DNA from: an uncultured Clostridia bacterium
GTDB taxonomy: Bacteria > Bacillota > Clostridia > Christensenellales > UBA1242
Direction: 5' to 3'
Length of the DNA stretch: 64,000 nt
NCBI GenBank assembly: GCA_944383375.1
Contig: CALWPG010000004.1
Span: 42,423-106,422, forward strand
Of the stretch, positions 57,110 to 64,000 are shown in pieces (the stretch's first letter is position 1; each line of letters starts with the position of its first letter). The position numbers and the translations under genes were made by a program. The notes beneath the pieces were generated by a model. It was given only the letters and a program-made list of their open reading frames with translations. It did not search any database and had not been told where the DNA came from.

Positions 57110-57194
57110 AATAAGATATGTATTCCATTATGTACATATGCCAAAAAGCCTTGACAAAAAAATGCCATGATTATATCATATTGTGAGGTTAATT

Positions 57195-58670
57195 ATGGAA
57201 GTTAGAACACGTTTTGCACCAAGCCCAACGGGCTATATGCACATAGGAAATTTACGCACTGCACTGTTTGCTTATCTTTTTGCAAAGCACAACGGTGGCA
57301 AGTTTATTTTAAGAATTGAGGACACCGACCAAAAACGTTATGTTGAGGGCGCGACAAAAGTCATATATGACACACTCAAAATCGCCAACTTAAAGCACGA
57401 TGAAGGCCCTGATGTTGGTGGAGAGTATGGCCCTTATGTTCAAAGTGAAAGAAAAGAGATTTATGCTAAATACGCACATATGCTTTTGGAGAGTGGACAT
57501 GCGTACTATTGTTTTTGCGATGAAGATGAAAAGGAAGAGCAAGGCTTTGGCTACAACAGACATTGCAGGAATTTGAGTCTGGAGGAAATCCAAAAAAACC
57601 TTGACGAGAAAAAGCCATATGTCATAAGACAAAAAGTTCCACTAACAGGCACCACCACCTTCCATGACGAAGTGTATGGCACCATAACTGTGGAAAATGA
57701 CAGCCTTGATGACCAAGTGCTGCTCAAACGTGACGGTATGCCTACATACAACTTTGCAAATGTGGTGGACGATCACCTTATGAATATCACCCACGTCATC
57801 CGTGGCAAGGAATATATCTCTTCAACACCAAAATACCAACTTTTGTATGAAGCTTTTGGGTGGCAACCACCAAAGACCATTCACCTTTCCACTATCATGG
57901 GCAGAAACGAAGATGGCAGTGTCAGCAAACTCAGCAAACGTCACGGCTCTGTGAGTTTCAACAATTTGCTTGAAGAAGGCTATTTAAGCGAGGCAATCGT
58001 CAACTACATCTCACTTCTTGGCTGGAACCCAAAGAGCGAGCAAGAACTCTTCTCTCTTGACGAACTCATCCAGCATTTTGATATCGACGGCATTGTCAAA
58101 AGCGATGCAATTTTTGACTACAAAAAATTGGACTGGTTCAATGCTCAGTACATCCAAAAGTTGGACCACAAAAGCTTTGTTGAAAAAAGTTTGCCTTACA
58201 CCAAAAATTTGCCAAAATTCATACAACAAAAATGGGAGTTTGCCTCCACCTTGGCACAGTCACGTATAAACAAATTTAGTGATATTCAACCACTGTTTGA
58301 ATTTTTGGACAATTTTAAAATCGACACAAATCTTTTTGAAAATAAGAAAAATAAACTTGATAAGCAAACATCACTGGATATTTTGAAAGATATGTTCCCA
58401 CTTCTTGCCAGCGCAGATTTTGAGGTTGAAAAATTAAACCACTTGCTTGCAAAATATGCCACCGACCACGAGATGAAAATTGGCAAACTCATGTGGCCTG
58501 TCCGCATTGCAGTGACTGCAAACACGGTGACCCCAGGTGGTGCTGGTGAAATGCTGTATCTACTTGGAAAAGAAGAGTCAATTTTGCGCCTTAAAGCCAG
58601 CATACAACGTTTGACAAGATCACGACGCAAACCAAGAATAAATACTGATGAAACAAAGGCTGGCAAATAA
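57195..58670 (+). CDS. gltX: Glutamate--tRNA ligase
   Basis: HIGH-type PTGYMHIGNLRTA and KLSKR motifs. Start ATG 57195. Confidence 0.95.
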   Translation: MEVRTRFAPSPTGYMHIGNLRTALFAYLFAKHNGGKFILRIEDTDQKRYVEGATKVIYDTLKIANLKHDEGPDVGGEYGPYVQSERKEIYAKYAHMLLESGHAYYCFCDEDEKEEQGFGYNRHCRNLSLEEIQKNLDEKKPYVIRQKVPLTGTTTFHDEVYGTITVENDSLDDQVLLKRDGMPTYNFANVVDDHLMNITHVIRGKEYISSTPKYQLLYEAFGWQPPKTIHLSTIMGRNEDGSVSKLSKRHGSVSFNNLLEEGYLSEAIVNYISLLGWNPKSEQELFSLDELIQHFDIDGIVKSDAIFDYKKLDWFNAQYIQKLDHKSFVEKSLPYTKNLPKFIQQKWEFASTLAQSRINKFSDIQPLFEFLDNFKIDTNLFENKKNKLDKQTSLDILKDMFPLLASADFEVEKLNHLLAKYATDHEMKIGKLMWPVRIAVTANTVTPGGAGEMLYLLGKEESILRLKASIQRLTRSRRKPRINTDETKAGK

Positions 58671-58688
58671 GACAACACATTGTCATGT

Positions 58689-58759
58689 GTCACTCCGAGC
58701 CTTGCTTACAGAGACGGACAAGCGAGGAGTCCCTGAGATTTCTCAGTGCGAGGAATCTC
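58689..58759 (+). repeat. Hairpin-repeat family: one full copy plus fragments upstream of the RT
   Basis: GTC-ACTCC-GA-G...C-GA-GGAGT, then fragments GAGATTTCTC and CGAGGAATCTC. Same family as the 60208-60575 field. Confidence 0.7.
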
Positions 58760-58806
58760 AATCTGACAAAAAGTGAAATTTTTCAACATTTTTTGCAAAT
58801 AGTTTG

Positions 58807-58833
58807 TTGAAACCTGCTTTAGTATGTTAAAAT
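58807..58833 (+). promoter_or_regulatory. Putative extended -10 promoter of the RT gene
   Basis: TTGAAA, 15 nt, TGtTAAAAT. Leaves a ~20-nt leader with an AGGAG RBS. Confidence 0.35.
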
Positions 58834-58859
58834 TTAATATACTACAACAGGAGAAAATT

Positions 58860-60071
58860 ATGAATTTGGATTTTATTGGTCAAGTTGCTTTTTTCAAGAA
58901 AAAAACTGGCAACGATGTACGCAAACTTTGCAAATTTAAAAACAAATCAAGTATTGAATACAATGCATCTCTGAGCATAAAACAGATTTTAGAGCCACTT
59001 GTTGAAAAGGAAATGAGAGACATCAATGGCATGACAGAAAAATTTATGCGAAGATTAATGGCGAACAGAATGGGGCTTTTCACAATTGTCAAGTTTGATT
59101 TTAAGGACTTTTTCCCTTCCATTTCACTTCGCTATGCCTATGAATTTTTTATTAAAGACAAGATTAATGAAAAATACCACCCACTGTTTGAAAACTATGT
59201 GGAGAGTGTGAAATACAATCTTCAAGGTTTGCCGCCAAGCAGTAACTTTGCTGCAGTTATGGCAAAAGCCATGAAAGAGGGGATTTTTGCTTTCTTTAAA
59301 ATTGACGGACTTACAGATTGTTTTTATTATGATGATACTTTTGTCATGTTATTTAAAAAGCGCGTCAATCATATCTATATAAAATTTGGCATTGAAGAGT
59401 GTGTAAAAAATGTGTTTAACAAGAAAAATAGCTTTAAATACCAAAACAAAGTAAAAGTGAATAACGACAACGAAAAATATGTATATTTGAATGATGAAAA
59501 ACTTCCCTGCTCATTCAGCTGGCTTGGATATAAATTTGGAATAACCTATGGTTGGCAAGGCATTGGTATGACAATTGACATCGCAGATGAGATGATAGAA
59601 CATCTTCGCCAAAAGATTTTTGAAGCAGTAAGGTTAAACTATCCTGACACAGAAAAATTGCGACTAATGCTGTACTCCAGCACAAGAAACGTCGTCACAA
59701 AGATTGAAAAGCAAGGTCAGGACAACAGAAATGTCAGCATAACGCCATTCAAGTTCTATAAAAACTTGGTCAAATATAAAGAACTCATTGGAGAAAATAC
59801 AGTTCGCTTTTTGCAAGGTGTTGTAATTGATGCGTTCAGACAACAGACAATCGCGCTGCCATATTATCTATACGACCAAAAAATTGAAAGTGGCTACAAC
59901 ATTTGGCACAATCTTTTCTCACATAGAGCGATTGTTCTCAACAAAAAATTTGGATGGTCGTATCCAAAACTTTACAATATCCTAAAGAAACATACAAATT
60001 TGGACTTACATAACAAGCCATACAGTGAACTCGCAAAAATTTATATAGATAATTTTGTAATAAAATACTAA
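58860..60071 (+). CDS. Stand-alone reverse transcriptase (403 aa), unclassified Abi/UG-like
   Basis: RT motifs VKFDFKDFFPSI (motif 2), LQGLPPSSNFAAV (motif 3), CFYYDDTFVML (YxDD, motif 5) and SWLGYKF (motif 7). Start ATG 58860 follows AGGAG. Confidence 0.8.
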   Translation: MNLDFIGQVAFFKKKTGNDVRKLCKFKNKSSIEYNASLSIKQILEPLVEKEMRDINGMTEKFMRRLMANRMGLFTIVKFDFKDFFPSISLRYAYEFFIKDKINEKYHPLFENYVESVKYNLQGLPPSSNFAAVMAKAMKEGIFAFFKIDGLTDCFYYDDTFVMLFKKRVNHIYIKFGIEECVKNVFNKKNSFKYQNKVKVNNDNEKYVYLNDEKLPCSFSWLGYKFGITYGWQGIGMTIDIADEMIEHLRQKIFEAVRLNYPDTEKLRLMLYSSTRNVVTKIEKQGQDNRNVSITPFKFYKNLVKYKELIGENTVRFLQGVVIDAFRQQTIALPYYLYDQKIESGYNIWHNLFSHRAIVLNKKFGWSYPKLYNILKKHTNLDLHNKPYSELAKIYIDNFVIKY

Positions 60072-60078
60072 AATCGTT

Positions 60079-60106
60079 TTGAAATAGTTAAAAACTGTGA
60101 TATCAT
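60079..60106 (+). promoter_or_regulatory. Putative extended -10 promoter just after the RT stop
   Basis: TTGAAA (60079-60084), 16 nt, TGaTATCAT (-10 at 60101-60106). Confidence 0.4.
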
Positions 60107-60112
60107 GTTGTC

Positions 60113-60200
60113 AAGGCTGCGAGAGCGGCTGAATTAAGAATTCGAAACAAAGTCACTGACGTTGTTTCATTCAGATGTTGCTTCGGCGACATCTTTTTTT
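60113..60200 (+). ncRNA. Candidate ~90-nt structured small RNA adjacent to the RT
   Basis: Hairpin 1 is GGCTGC-GAGA-GCGGCT (GNRA loop). Hairpin 2 is TGAAT..GAAACAA-11 nt-TTGTTTC-ATTCA. Hairpin 3 is GATGTTGC-TTCG-GCGACATC (UUCG loop) plus T7. Confidence 0.45.
60174..60200 (+). terminator. Rho-independent terminator (RT / small RNA unit)
   Basis: GATGTTGC-ttcg-GCGACATC followed by TTTTTTT. Confidence 0.8.
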
Positions 60201-60207
60201 ATGTAAT

Positions 60208-60575
60208 GAGATTCCTCGTCGTAAACTCCTCGGAATGACAGGAGTAGTGTCATGTCGAATTCCATTTTGTCATCCCGAATGTAGTGAGAGATCACAACCT
60301 TTTGTCATTTCGAGCGAAGCGAGAAATCTCAGCCTCATGTCATCCTGAGGAGCGACAGCGACGTGAGGATCTCGTGTACGCGCCCTGTGGGCGAGACTCC
60401 TCGCTTTTGGCTCGGAGTGACACGCTACTTCGCTTTTGTCATTTCGAAGTGCGTAGCACTGAGAAATCTCAGAGATTCCTCGTGGCAGAGCCACTCGGAA
60501 TGGCAATAGGTTGTACTGCCTCGGAACGACAGGATGAGTGCACTTTCAGAATGACTGTGGTGCCTAGAATGACAA
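60208..60575. repeat. Field of at least 7 hairpin repeats in both orientations (consensus GTC-AYYYC-GA-[variable stem-loop]-GA-GRRRT-CTC)
   Basis: Copies at 60208-60240 (rev), 60269-60293 (degenerate), 60304-60330, 60339-60373, 60393-60421 (rev), 60438-60470 and 60472-60504 (rev), with fragments to about 60575. Visibly GC-richer than the flanks. Confidence 0.8.
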
Positions 60576-60626: not shown

Positions 60627-63600
60627 TCAAATCCATCTTAAGGCACTCGTTGTGGCGTCTCCACGTACAAAACTCAAGCTACCGGTTGAGACTCTAAAGT
60701 AAGAAGAATAACTAGTTTGCATTGATGTTGGTATCATTGCTATCCAACCACGAGTAGATGCTCCAGTTAATGTTAAGGTCACTGATTTAGTATAACTAAT
60801 AATATTTAATCCATAATTTTGAACCATTTCTGGAGTAGACGATGATGAGGTATAAACATACAACGTACCAGTTATTGTTGGAAGACCATCTATGGTAATT
60901 TTCCCTTGATATGGAGAATTAATACTATATTGAGAACCTGTAATGTATGGAGAACCTTCAATATCCAAAGTTGTATTTGCTGACTTATTAATCGCTATAT
61001 TCGTATAATCTTCACCAACATTAGCACTACCAGATACGCTGATTGCAATACCTTTTGTTGAAGTGTTTGTAGAAGCAAAAATTGCTGTTGCTCCACCAAT
61101 AGTTCCACCACTAACATTTAAAGTCCCACCTATAGTATAAATACCATAAGTACTTCCCTTTGAGCCTATAATTGTAGGAACTGACGCACTTGATTGACTT
61201 ATTGTAATGGTTCCCACATTTGACGTGGAATTTCCATTATGTATAGCATAAGGACCATCAATGTACCCACCTTGAATAACTATAGTGCCATCACCATAGT
61301 TGAATATACCTTTCATTCTTGTTGGCATGGAGTATCCACATTGTATTGTACCACCAGTGATCATTACTGTGCCGTTGCTAGCATTGTACAATCCATATGC
61401 AGTGTTTGAATTTCCAATTGTACCACCATTAATAGTCACAGCATGAGCACCATTAGCTCCATTATAAACTCCAGTACCTGCCAAAATCACAGTTGGTGTT
61501 TGGTCTGAAGTTTGGTCTATGGTAATAGTACCAGAACTAGTTGATCCATGGCCATTTCGAATTCCAGTAGATGATGCATTAATAGTACCACCATTAAAGT
61601 TCACGGAGCCGTTGCCATAATTGTATATACCATTTCCTGAGGAGCCGGCTGTCAATGTTCCACCATTTACAGTGATATTTCCGGTTGAATTGTTGTAAAT
61701 AGCATTTCCACAAGCAGAACCACCAATGTCACCATCTGTTACTGTGACTTTACCAGTGGAGTTATTAAATACTCCATAAGATGCTGTTCCATTTCCGATT
61801 GTTCCACCCGAAATTGTGACAGCATTTGTTCTTGTGGAATTGTTATAAATTGCACTCTCAACCCCGTCAATATTCGCAGAATCAGAAACTGTAAGCATGC
61901 TATTGCTATTATTTAAAACAACGCCTCTGTAGCCATCTATGTGCCCTCCTGATATTGTAATACCACCAGGAGCATCACTATATACTCCAGCAAAACCATC
62001 AGTTTCAGCACCCGTAACTTGGCCTCCACTCACTACCACAGCTCCCACAAGTGTTGAGTAGTTATAAATTCCATAATTACCACTAATTGAGGCTGTACTA
62101 GAAACAGTGATTACACCATCAGCATTTAGAATTCCATAGTAACCATTAGCCTCACCTGCTGAGATAGTTACATTTCCCGATACGTTGTATATTGCACTAC
62201 AATCTGCTGAAGTAGAACTTTGTATTAATCCACCTAAAATTAAAATTTCTCCAGTTGAATCATTATAAACACCATAAGTGCTTGACGTGGAACCGATTGT
62301 TCCGCCTGAGATTGTGACTGCATATTGACTACCTGTTGGTGATGAGTAATTTTCTATTGCATTGTCAACAGCATTAATAACAGTTGGATAGGTACTACTT
62401 GCTTGGCTAATCGTTACTGTGCCAGTAGTTGTTGAAGCAGTACTACCATTCACAATGGCTCGTGAACCAGTAATTGTCCCTCCAGTTATTTCAACTGAAC
62501 CATTTCCATAGTTCACCACAGCAATACCTTTAACATCACCAGTCGGATCATTTGCAGCTGTTATCGTTGATGAGCCTGAAATAGTTACAGTTCCACTCTC
62601 ATTTTGAATTGTCTCCATAGGAGCACTTACTTGCGAATTATTAATTTTTAAAATTCCGTTGTTTGTATTTGTAATCGCACTAGTAAGACAAATTATAGTA
62701 TTGTTATCAATGAAATTCAATTCTCCATTATCGTTCGTTATAGGCAGCATTGATGTTATTTCTGAGTCAGCAAATTCCATGTATCCACTATTATTAACAA
62801 AAGCAGGACCTAGAGGTGATTCTAAAGTAGAGCCAGAAACTGTAACGGTCCCTTGATTGTTAGTAATAGCACCTAACCTTACACTTGTAGTAGGTACATC
62901 TATGTAACAATTAATAACATTCAGAGTGCTGCTAGTGACAGTAATGGCACCATCAATACTTAACTGAGCACTTCCGCCACCCAAGGTGAGGGTGCTTGCT
63001 GTTTGAGTTATGTTTCCTGTCACGGTGACTGCTGAATTACTTATTATTGTAAGAGGTATGCCGACAAGAGCAGTGTCAGTTGTGTGATTACGTTGAACAA
63101 TTAAAATATCGTTATTTTCAGCAAACTTTGTTGCATCGGCTAATTGTGCGTATGAAATAGATCTTGTTTGGTTGCGCACATTTGCAACTCCAAGGCAAAG
63201 GTCACTTGTGCCATTTAGGTACAATGACTCAGAAACTATTCCCAGTCTGAAATGATAGCCCCAATCTAGTGCTGTGTCGGTATTTTCATAATATGCAAGA
63301 TATGTTCCATCTGTTTGAGCGCTTTCAGTAATTTCAATATCTCTCGTAGTAAAAGTTCCTTCAATAACCACACCAAAATTGTTGCTTGTTGTGTTTGAAA
63401 ATGAAGTTGTACTTGACCTTGCTCTGATGCTTGAAATTGTAGGTGAACCTGTAAGTCTCAACCAACCACCATCATTCATGTCTATGCTATAGTAACCGCT
63501 AATTGATCCACCACTAACAGTTACTGTTCCGTTTGAACTATCAATACCAGAATAACTGGATGAAGAACTACCTGTAATTGTTCCGCCCTGTACATCTATT

Positions 63601-64000
63601 GCATTTTCACTAGTGCCTTGATTAATAATTCCGTATCTTGTTCCTGTGATTTGTGTTGATGTTCCACTTATAGTTACAGTGGCATTACTTCCCTGATTAA
63701 ATATACCCGAATTTCCACTAATGGTTCCACCAGTGATTGTTAAATCACCAGAATTATTAATTGCATAAGCGCCATAAGCTGTTCCACTTTGAATTGTACC
63801 ATTTTGAATTTGGACTACTGCTGATGATGAAACATTCCATATTCCTATATTGGTTCCAGTAATTGATGTATTTGCACCTGAAATCATAACTTCAGCAGTT
63901 GAAGTATCAGAACCATCTCCATTTTGGATTCCTCGATAACCTGTCAATGTACCACCAGTTATGGATACTGCTCCATCAAAATTAACCAAAGCAGTAAACG
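60627..64000 (-). CDS. Very large secreted/surface protein with beta-helix-type Gly/Thr/Ser/Asn repeats (C-terminal part; N-terminus lies beyond the window)
   Basis: The frame stays open to the window edge. Dozens of ~30-aa repeats of the form (V/I)T(I/V)SGGTIxGxxxGIxNxxxGxV. Confidence 0.8.
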   Translation of the reverse strand, partial: FTALVNFDGAVSITGGTLTGYRGIQNGDGSDTSTAEVMISGANTSITGTNIGIWNVSSSAVVQIQNGTIQSGTAYGAYAINNSGDLTITGGTISGNSGIFNQGSNATVTISGTSTQITGTRYGIINQGTSENAIDVQGGTITGSSSSSYSGIDSSNGTVTVSGGSISGYYSIDMNDGGWLRLTGSPTISSIRARSSTTSFSNTTSNNFGVVIEGTFTTRDIEITESAQTDGTYLAYYENTDTALDWGYHFRLGIVSESLYLNGTSDLCLGVANVRNQTRSISYAQLADATKFAENNDILIVQRNHTTDTALVGIPLTIISNSAVTVTGNITQTASTLTLGGGSAQLSIDGAITVTSSTLNVINCYIDVPTTSVRLGAITNNQGTVTVSGSTLESPLGPAFVNNSGYMEFADSEITSMLPITNDNGELNFIDNNTIICLTSAITNTNNGILKINNSQVSAPMETIQNESGTVTISGSSTITAANDPTGDVKGIAVVNYGNGSVEITGGTITGSRAIVNGSTASTTTGTVTISQASSTYPTVINAVDNAIENYSSPTGSQYAVTISGGTIGSTSSTYGVYNDSTGEILILGGLIQSSTSADCSAIYNVSGNVTISAGEANGYYGILNADGVITVSSTASISGNYGIYNYSTLVGAVVVSGGQVTGAETDGFAGVYSDAPGGITISGGHIDGYRGVVLNNSNSMLTVSDSANIDGVESAIYNNSTRTNAVTISGGTIGNGTASYGVFNNSTGKVTVTDGDIGGSACGNAIYNNSTGNITVNGGTLTAGSSGNGIYNYGNGSVNFNGGTINASSTGIRNGHGSTSSGTITIDQTSDQTPTVILAGTGVYNGANGAHAVTINGGTIGNSNTAYGLYNASNGTVMITGGTIQCGYSMPTRMKGIFNYGDGTIVIQGGYIDGPYAIHNGNSTSNVGTITISQSSASVPTIIGSKGSTYGIYTIGGTLNVSGGTIGGATAIFASTNTSTKGIAISVSGSANVGEDYTNIAINKSANTTLDIEGSPYITGSQYSINSPYQGKITIDGLPTITGTLYVYTSSSSTPEMVQNYGLNIISYTKSVTLTLTGASTRGWIAMIPTSMQTSYSSYFRVSTGSLSFVRGDATTSALRWI

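Follow-up and report, generated by a model that had tools for sequence, protein, structure and literature searches.

What are the GC-rich hairpins that crowd both sides of a reverse transcriptase (RT) gene in an uncultured Clostridia bacterium, and do they belong to that gene? The question arises from a 64,000-nt stretch of DNA (GenBank assembly GCA_944383375.1, contig CALWPG010000004.1, positions 42,423 to 106,422; hereafter the window), in which a preliminary description had listed a series of hairpin repeats in both orientations, each of which was found again at its position. The repeats share the frame TGTCA-YYYY-GA-(inner hairpin)-GA-RRRR-TC(T/C)C, with seven full units in the window, four on the + strand and three on the − strand. 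Besides these there are one degenerate + unit and about six partial pieces, shortened or reduced to the head (Table 1). We consider it probable (roughly 0.8) that the units are single-stranded DNA (ssDNA) hairpin sites of the type called Ssn-related motifs (SRM), dispersed through the genome as a family resembling repetitive extragenic palindromes (REP) and miniature inverted-repeat transposable elements (MITE), with the small nuclease Ssn as partner enzyme. They form a Clostridial branch of the (C/T)GTC-tagged REP/SRM superfamily, distinguished by a tandem G·A loop that interrupts the stem.

The genome under study is a metagenome-assembled genome (MAG) of 0.99 Mb with 34% GC, in 18 contigs and estimated to be 99% complete. 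Searching it with the frame as a pattern that demands no complementarity between the stem halves gave 58–60 intact units, against none for the reversed pattern used as control. Strict heads (142) and strict tails (95) likewise exceeded the approximately 22 expected of each, and heads of the form TGTCAYYYYRA number about 150 overall. The units are grouped in about 45 clusters, which lie on 16 of the 18 contigs, and several contig ends lie inside repeats. Within the window the stringent pattern gave two matches, against 0.02 expected, and the only units are those adjoining the RT, which explains the impression of an association with that gene in the preliminary description.

Full units are 27–45 nt long and their 5-bp outer stem is perfectly complementary in 57 of 60. 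Five outer-stem types coexist (ATTTC, 27 units; ATTCC, 18; ATCCC, 5; ATTCT, 4; ACTCC, 3), the stem starting with AT in 56 of the 60 units and with AC in four. The GTCA of the tag is invariant and is preceded by T (position −1) in 58 of 59 units. Furthermore, the C that follows RRRT (column 28) is invariant in all 30 distinct frames, a result that is partly circular because both searches required C there. The proposal that the stems covary between copies is supported statistically by this larger set of 30 frames: both sides change in six of the eight pairs, paired cells amount to 94.6% as compared with 83.8% after shuffling, and the covariation score is 0.41 as compared with 0.21, neither observed value being reached in any of 500 shuffles. 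With the stem partners slid against each other, pairing was only 8–65%.

The tandem GA/GA dinucleotides are also conserved. With units defined independently, by GTCA, a complementary 5-bp outer stem and CTC and with no GA required, 62 of the 82 units found (control, 9 units) carry GA on both sides, so that the dinucleotides are not an artefact of the pattern. The inner modules are variable (7–25 nt), and 22 of the 60 consist of GCGNAGC or GCGNNAGC; motifs of the GCGNAGC type are known as extraordinarily stable mini-hairpins in DNA (PMC13037366). Identical copies are present, eight of GTCATTTCGAGCGATAGCGAGAAATCTC and seven of the version with GCGAAGC. No match to the units was found in Rfam, at either gathering or E-value thresholds.

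All 60 full units are intergenic. Convergent spacers, which make up 14% of spacers, hold 18 of the 60 and divergent spacers hold one, a REP-like pattern of distribution, and the clusters adjoin housekeeping genes, as in the frr/tsf and hrcA/eno spacers and beside rplA. Paired units occur as eight tail-to-tail, three head-to-head and three head-to-tail dimers; in seven of the tail-to-tail dimers the gap is a single nucleotide, and in all seven the two partners differ in their outer stems. Across the genus the number of units varies from 0 to 96. A gain of units can be read directly from the spacer between tsf and frr, which in the genome under study measures 406 nt and contains five to six units, with the tsf terminator on one side and the conserved frr promoter on the other. 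The same spacer in 11 congeners measures 121–157 nt and contains none, and these empty sites include the congener G009, the EF-Ts of which is 98% identical. With one filled and eleven empty sites, the cluster was clearly gained in the lineage under study. An alignment of the gltX-RT spacer with that of the repeat-free congener G004, as a second empty site, was too diverged for use.

The candidate partner enzyme belongs to a family that has been described recently. In Neisseria meningitidis, SsnA is a 94-aa single-domain GIY-YIG protein (cd10448; Chenal et al. 2025, Nat Commun 16:2388, PMC11893778). Binding of SsnA to the NTS repeat CGTCATTCCCGCGMAVGCGGGAATCYRG is limited to ssDNA and does not extend to double-stranded DNA or RNA, and the enzyme cleaves a few nucleotides upstream of the repeat, 5' of the tag. 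Cleavage depends on the GTC tag, and binding on the C that follows the palindrome (PMC11893778). Ssn homologues across bacteria are flanked by SRM, the SRM-ssn-SRM arrangement being widespread, and the authors remark that it resembles an insertion sequence (PMC11893778).

An equivalent arrangement was found among the relatives of the genome under study. In G009 (CALWDZ01, an uncultured Clostridia bacterium of the same genus with 96 units), the repeat cluster downstream of the RT orthologue encloses a gene for a 96-aa GIY-YIG protein (CALWDZ010000003.1, 90868-91158). A + unit ends 44 nt before the ATG of this gene and a − unit starts at its stop codon. A genome of another genus (G023) has the same hairpin-ssn-hairpin arrangement. 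A scan of one genome per species gave at least 568 homologues of the G009 protein, and the loci of the best 80, with 57–70% identity, were analysed. These come from Cyanobacteria, Chloroflexota, Planctomycetota, Nitrospirota, Patescibacteria, Omnitrophota, Ignavibacteria, Deltaproteobacteria, Clostridia and others, and the protein between the hairpins is a single-domain GIY-YIG protein of 91–98 aa. Units of the form GTCA-stem-...-stem-CTC were present within 1.5 kb at 64 or more of the 80 loci (210 units, against 2 in the control). Typically a + unit ends 0–60 nt ahead of the ssn start codon, and at 22 loci a unit abuts the stop codon, always in inverted orientation, its tail pointing to the gene. 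The loci missed by the strict finder mostly carry units with variant tails or perfect-stem hairpins resembling NTS. The commonest hairpin type around the Ssn homologues of this sample is GTCATTGC-GA....

Perfect-stem hairpins near-identical to Neisseria NTS were seen in the flanks of L066 (801), L025 (2365 and 2392), L057 and L086, an example being TGTCATTCCCGCGAAAGCGGGAATCCAG in a Planctomycetota MAG, beside an Ssn homologue of the same clade. They are sometimes found in the same locus as G·A-type units, so the two types can coexist at one locus.

The G009 protein aligns with the 94-aa N. gonorrhoeae orthologue of SsnA over 90 aa without gaps (49% identity, E = 8e-30), and its Y5, Y16 and E63 align with the published catalytic Y6, Y17 and E64 of SsnA. 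It has a single match site in each N. gonorrhoeae chromosome searched, where the 94-aa open reading frame (ORF) sits among 16 copies of NTS in 2.7 kb, and it is only distantly related to UPF0213/BH0048 (E = 0.008). The gonococcal locus used for this comparison is L097 (NZ_CP119140.1, 1881087-1883756); N. gonorrhoeae records of about 2.17 Mb that bear a plasmid label are whole chromosomes.

Units and gene are also associated across genomes. Among 399 Clostridia genomes compared for units and the close ssn clade, 12 have at least 10 units, and a close ssn homologue is present in six of them; the genomes below 10 units divide into 12 with the gene and 375 without it. The association is significant both for genomes with at least 10 units (Fisher p = 2.7e-6) and for genomes with any unit (p = 2.9e-11).

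Like NTS and SRM, the units described here are oriented hairpins with a 5' (C/T)GTC tag, a palindrome starting with AT and a C after the palindrome; they are intergenic and clustered, in tens to hundreds of copies, and in relatives they enclose a gene whose product, a single-domain GIY-YIG protein of about 95 aa, shows 49% identity to the Neisseria orthologue of SsnA and has the catalytic Y, Y and E in equivalent positions. They differ from NTS and SRM in the stem, which is split by a 2x2 tandem G·A loop and capped by a variable inner hairpin of 7–25 nt, in the tail, which is CTC rather than CYRG, and in the host, a Gram-positive-type Clostridia lineage with a 1-Mb genome whose assembly is without an ssn gene. 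In the literature on such GIY-YIG genes and hairpin repeats we found no description of this G·A-type element.

Integron attC sites are likewise folded as ssDNA, with structure conserved above sequence, short conserved basal boxes and a variable terminal structure; the boxes are RYYYAAC/GTTRRRY, and the sites lie in cassette arrays beside a tyrosine recombinase. The units follow the same logic of an ssDNA fold with short conserved boxes at the base and a variable terminal part, but the boxes differ, and neither a cassette array nor a tyrosine recombinase was seen here, an integrase not having been searched for. Another comparison is with the CGTC/TGTC-tagged REP superfamily, which includes Neisseria dRS3 and Rickettsia RPE-4 and RPE-6, and in which TGTC variants with AT-start stems are known and a dedicated transposase is not (Di Nocera, De Gregorio & Rocco 2013, PMC3733652). 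The units resemble these REPs in the TGTC tag, the AT-start stems, the short unpaired tail, the coexistence of several subfamilies, their placement between co-directional and convergent genes, and the lack of a dedicated transposase. The published REPs have a continuous stem of 8–9 bp, a loop of 4–5 nt, a CCA tail and mostly head-to-head dimers (PMC3733652), whereas the units have a bipartite G·A stem, a variable inner module, a CTC tail and mostly tail-to-tail dimers with a 1-nt gap. As in the REP/REPIN-RAYT system (Nunvar 2010; Bertels & Rainey 2011, PMC3116915), a small nuclease-type gene lies between inverted hairpin repeats that are dispersed as singlets and inverted doublets and are patchy among relatives, but the GTAG tag and the Y1 HUH transposase of that system are both absent here.

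The following mechanism borrows ssDNA-only binding and cleavage 5' of the tag from the literature on the Neisseria and Wolbachia homologues, and supposes that G·A-type units are recognised like NTS. When exposed as ssDNA during replication, repair or DNA uptake, the tagged strand would fold in three layers, namely an outer 5-bp stem starting with A-T, the 2x2 tandem G·A loop and, innermost, the variable hairpin, which would often be the very stable GCGNAGC or GCGNNAGC DNA mini-hairpin. The Ssn nuclease would bind this fold together with the following C and nick a few nucleotides 5' of the GTC tag. The autonomous form would consist of ssn between two inverted units with their tails inward; a nick 5' of each tag is therefore predicted to fall just outside the hairpin-ssn-hairpin, one on each strand. 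Gene-less tail-to-tail dimers, solo units and head-only fragments would be dispersed non-autonomous derivatives, and the approximately 60 intact units of the genome under study would be orphans of an element that was lost or sits in an assembly gap. With the odds somewhat against it, we also entertain the stronger version, that the hairpin-ssn-hairpin of about 400 bp is an autonomous mobile element in which the 95-aa ssDNA-specific nickase acts as a transposase or homing enzyme. The dimers, solo units and head-only arrays might then be its MITE-like progeny and footprints, and the element might have moved between phyla, seeding dozens of copies and then being lost.

Several observations weigh against the SRM/Ssn explanation. 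No ssn gene or remnant was found in the assembly under study, tblastn giving only UvrC, so that within this assembly the units count as orphans. Since repeats are where contigs break, a repeat-flanked ssn gene of about 300 bp could be lost from a MAG. Six of the 12 unit-rich Clostridia genomes in the association sample are likewise without the gene. The published SRM motif, HGTCWYN(0-2)YYVSBRHN(0-5)WNVSBRGN(0-2)RNCYNB, matches none of the 60 units because the G·A loop breaks its V-S-B-R positions; its three matches in the genome, none of them a unit, compare with 0–1 in Markov controls, and the motif is an operational search string and not a mechanistic definition. In Neisseria, the NTS copies nearest to ssnA face the gene with their heads (− upstream, + downstream), the opposite of the tails-inward arrangement seen here. 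Changes to the stem sequence that kept the structure abolished SsnA activity (PMC11893778), and it is therefore not assured that a single enzyme would recognise all five of the coexisting stem types. Nor is any Ssn element known to be mobile. Finally, folding with ViennaRNA and DNA parameters recovered the bipartite hairpin with modest energies of −2 to −7 kcal/mol, which reach a z of about −2 in the longer units but no significance in the short ones. The tagged strand differed from its complement by 0.2 kcal/mol, in a model that credits neither sheared G·A pairs nor mini-hairpins, and the energies are therefore uninformative on the choice of strand.

If the hairpins were instead the template, product, target or cassette boundary of the RT, in the manner of retrons or diversity-generating retroelements, units would be expected to follow that gene. 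Units do stand on both sides of the RT in the genome under study and in G009, the cluster downstream of it is the largest in the genome, and a rare pair of ACTCC-type units brackets it in inverted orientation. In G009, however, the corresponding units beside the RT are in direct and not inverted orientation. The RT orthologue of G017 has two units at a distance of about 1 kb, and within 1.5 kb of the orthologues in G015, G006 and G004 there is no unit. G004 retains the gltX-RT arrangement with no unit in its whole genome, and G005 has 67 units and no RT. The supposed association with the RT does not survive the genome-wide search either, since the repeats are spread through intergenic regions and the clusters elsewhere lie mostly between housekeeping genes. 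The RT is one of four genes with full units in both flanking spacers; the sequences of the other three, as judged by reading them, suggest a PAP2-like membrane protein, an aminopeptidase and a lipoprotein, and no nuclease. Moreover, the RT has a conserved candidate non-coding RNA (ncRNA) of its own just 3' of the gene. Because three orthologous loci lack units, and the RT occurs without units and units without the RT, a specific tie was rejected and we give this explanation almost no credence; the RT is a bystander, both of whose flanking spacers were colonised by units. Mobilisation as classical REP or REPIN elements by a RAYT, an IS200/IS605-like Y1 HUH transposase, accounts for the similar look of short GC-rich imperfect palindromes that are intergenic, form inverted dimers and are patchy among relatives. 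The tag is TGTC with no GTAG, Y1_Tnp (PF01797) was not found in the genome by a search that detects the family in six control genomes, and the gene bracketed elsewhere encodes a GIY-YIG nuclease and not a RAYT, all of which makes this explanation highly improbable.

Action at the level of RNA of the kind suggested for classical REPs, as terminators, stabilisers of mRNA 3' ends or protein-binding sites, with the tandem G·A as an RNA motif, has more in its favour and is nevertheless unlikely. The units lie mainly downstream of genes, with convergent spacers enriched and divergent (promoter) spacers almost empty, and tandem sheared G·A pairs are common RNA motifs. On the other hand, the orientation is not fixed (21 units in co-directional spacers have the same sense as the genes and 11 the opposite), many units are in inverted dimers, and on the opposite strand G·A turns into C·T. 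Units match no Rfam family and are without a T-run, genuine terminators such as those of tsf and the RT adjoin them, the inner GCGNAGC modules are a DNA-specific stable fold, and the RNA version of NTS is not bound by SsnA (PMC11893778). Variable orientation, DNA mini-hairpin cores, an enzyme family confined to ssDNA and the recovery of the bipartite hairpin with DNA parameters thus argue for DNA rather than RNA. The preliminary description had left the choice between RNA and ssDNA; action as a single strand fits the biology of the Ssn family, as ssDNA and not as RNA, with secondary effects on mRNA or its ends possible. A different role for the same enzyme would be that of a homing endonuclease-like gene inserting into pre-existing tail-to-tail dimers, the hairpins being primarily its targets, not transposon ends, and spreading by a host-driven process. 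This agrees with the gene-less 1-nt-gap tail-to-tail dimers, with the position of ssn, always between two tails, and with the commonness of unit-rich genomes without the gene. We rate it very unlikely, with present data that would fit either reading. Against it stand the want of any known alternative spreading mechanism, the strong association of units and gene across Clostridia, and the predicted nicks outside the composite unit, which would suit mobilisation of the whole.

The features of the window are collected in Table 1. The tail-to-tail dimer at 60437-60504 is a gene-less form of the hairpin-ssn-hairpin arrangement. As the preliminary description had suspected, the repeats give rise to spurious peptides: SFRAKREIS (60305-60331), CHPEERQRREDL (60338-60373) and RFLVAEPLGM (60473-60502) are translations of units, and every ORF that overlaps a unit anywhere in the genome is short (71–124 aa).

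Table 1. Hairpin units, their fragments and neighbouring features in the window; positions elsewhere in the genome are given as contig:position.
Feature	Position	Strand	Composition	Remarks
Repeat-bearing segments	58688-58768 and 60208-60573			all units and pieces
Full unit, long 45-nt type	58688-58733	+	TGTCA-CTCC-GA-GCCTTGCTTACAGAGACGGACAAGC-GA-GGAG-TCCC; outer stem ACTCC/GGAGT	between gltX stop and RT promoter; type recurs at C3:53711, C14:15418 and in relatives G009 and G005
Shortened or fused pieces	58735-58768		GAGATTTCTCAGTGC, tail half of − unit; GAGGAATCTC, + unit tail; AATCTGACA, head remnant
RT ORF	58824/58860-60071			motif YYDD
Conserved element of about 95 nt	60108-60200	+	two hairpins and a terminator	3' of RT
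Full unit	60208-60240	−	outer stem ATTCC/GGAAT; inner GGAG-TTTA-CGAC	second tandem G·A possible; near-identical copies at C5:88232 and C14:15569
Degenerate head	60249-60263	+	GTCATGTCGAATTCC
Degenerate unit	60269-60295	+	GTCATCCCGAATGTAGTGAGAGATCAC	one C·A mismatch in outer stem
Full unit	60303-60330	+	TGTCATTTC-GA-GCGAAGC-GA-GAAATCTC; outer stem ATTTC, inner GCGAAGC (GCGNAGC motif)	second commonest sequence in genome, 7 identical copies
Full unit, GAGGAG...CGACGTG subtype	60338-60373	+	outer stem ATCCT/AGGAT	subtype also flanks ssn in relatives G009 and G023
Full unit	60393-60422	−	outer stem ACTCC/GGAGT; inner GC-CAAAA-GC
Tail-to-tail dimer, 1-nt gap (A)	60437-60504	+ then −	+ unit 60437-60470, ATTTC, inner AGTGC-GTA-GCACT; − unit 60472-60504, ATTCC, inner GTGGC-TCT-GCCAC	two full units
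Head-only remnants	60519-60530, 60545-60555, 60564-60573	−	CCTCGGAACGAC, TTCAGAATGAC, CTAGAATGAC
1120-aa ORF	60627-63989	−	internal repeats	directly after repeat cluster

The RT is divergent, with no match in Pfam and only weak matches to retron/UG-type RTs in PADLOC (E about 3e-5), and close orthologues (56–71% identity) are present in five congeners. The conserved element 3' of it is found with all six orthologues of the genus and comprises a promoter-like TTG-N17-TGTGTTATAtT, the hairpins GGYTGC-GAGA-GCGRCT and GAAACAA-GTCACTGAC-TTGTTTC, and a terminator. Both sides change in 13 of its 25 predicted pairs, no match was found in Rfam at gathering or E-value thresholds, and the element is a candidate partner ncRNA of the RT. 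The adjacency of gltX and the RT (window 57183-60071, compared with L002, L005 and L006) is kept in the genus. Relative to gltX, the RT segment of G009 and G006 is inverted as compared with that of the genome under study and G004, and the large surface-type neighbour switches side accordingly. The 1120-aa ORF of the window has no Pfam match and is probably a surface protein; G009 has a comparable repeat protein on the opposite side of its RT.

Head-only arrays are a recurrent feature of the family. They consist of one to three heads (TGTCAYYYYGA, in some cases extended by the first bases of the inner stem), each with a pyrimidine-rich spacer of 8–12 nt, at a period of about 19–23 nt, and always stand 5' of a full unit whose orientation they share. 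About 23 such heads occur in the genome under study (C3:74423-74568, C1:140048-140234, C7:25636-25806, C5:38912-39029 and others), and the pattern recurs in G009, in G431 and at loci L027, L060, L065 and L082, including other phyla. Slippage at the hairpin is a possible origin, as are insertion footprints. At least six contig ends lie in hairpin repeats, which therefore fragment this MAG. The end of contig C1 (144468-144568) is the reverse complement of the start of C7 (1-101) across a tail-to-tail hairpin dimer, and the two contigs probably join there.

These results remove a false lead, that of a structured repeat linked to the RT, and place a conspicuous repeat family of an uncultured Clostridia lineage with a reduced genome in the recently described Ssn/SRM system. 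They also reveal a gap in the published SRM census: the GTCATTGC-GA... type and the type of the genome under study both fall outside the SRM search motif, and the system is therefore probably more widespread than has been estimated, above all in Gram-positive and candidate phyla. At a practical level, MAG assemblies break at the units, and protein databases are polluted by spurious ORFs of the SFRAKREIS or CHPEERQRREDL kind. The G·A-split stems, mini-hairpin cores and coexisting stem types are natural test substrates for how a 95-aa enzyme reads the sequence and shape of ssDNA, which bears on the proposed use of Ssn proteins as programmable ssDNA cutters. If true, the autonomous-element reading would amount to a mechanism of transposition or homing that belongs to none of the recognised transposase classes, and would account in general for orphan CGTC/TGTC REPs.

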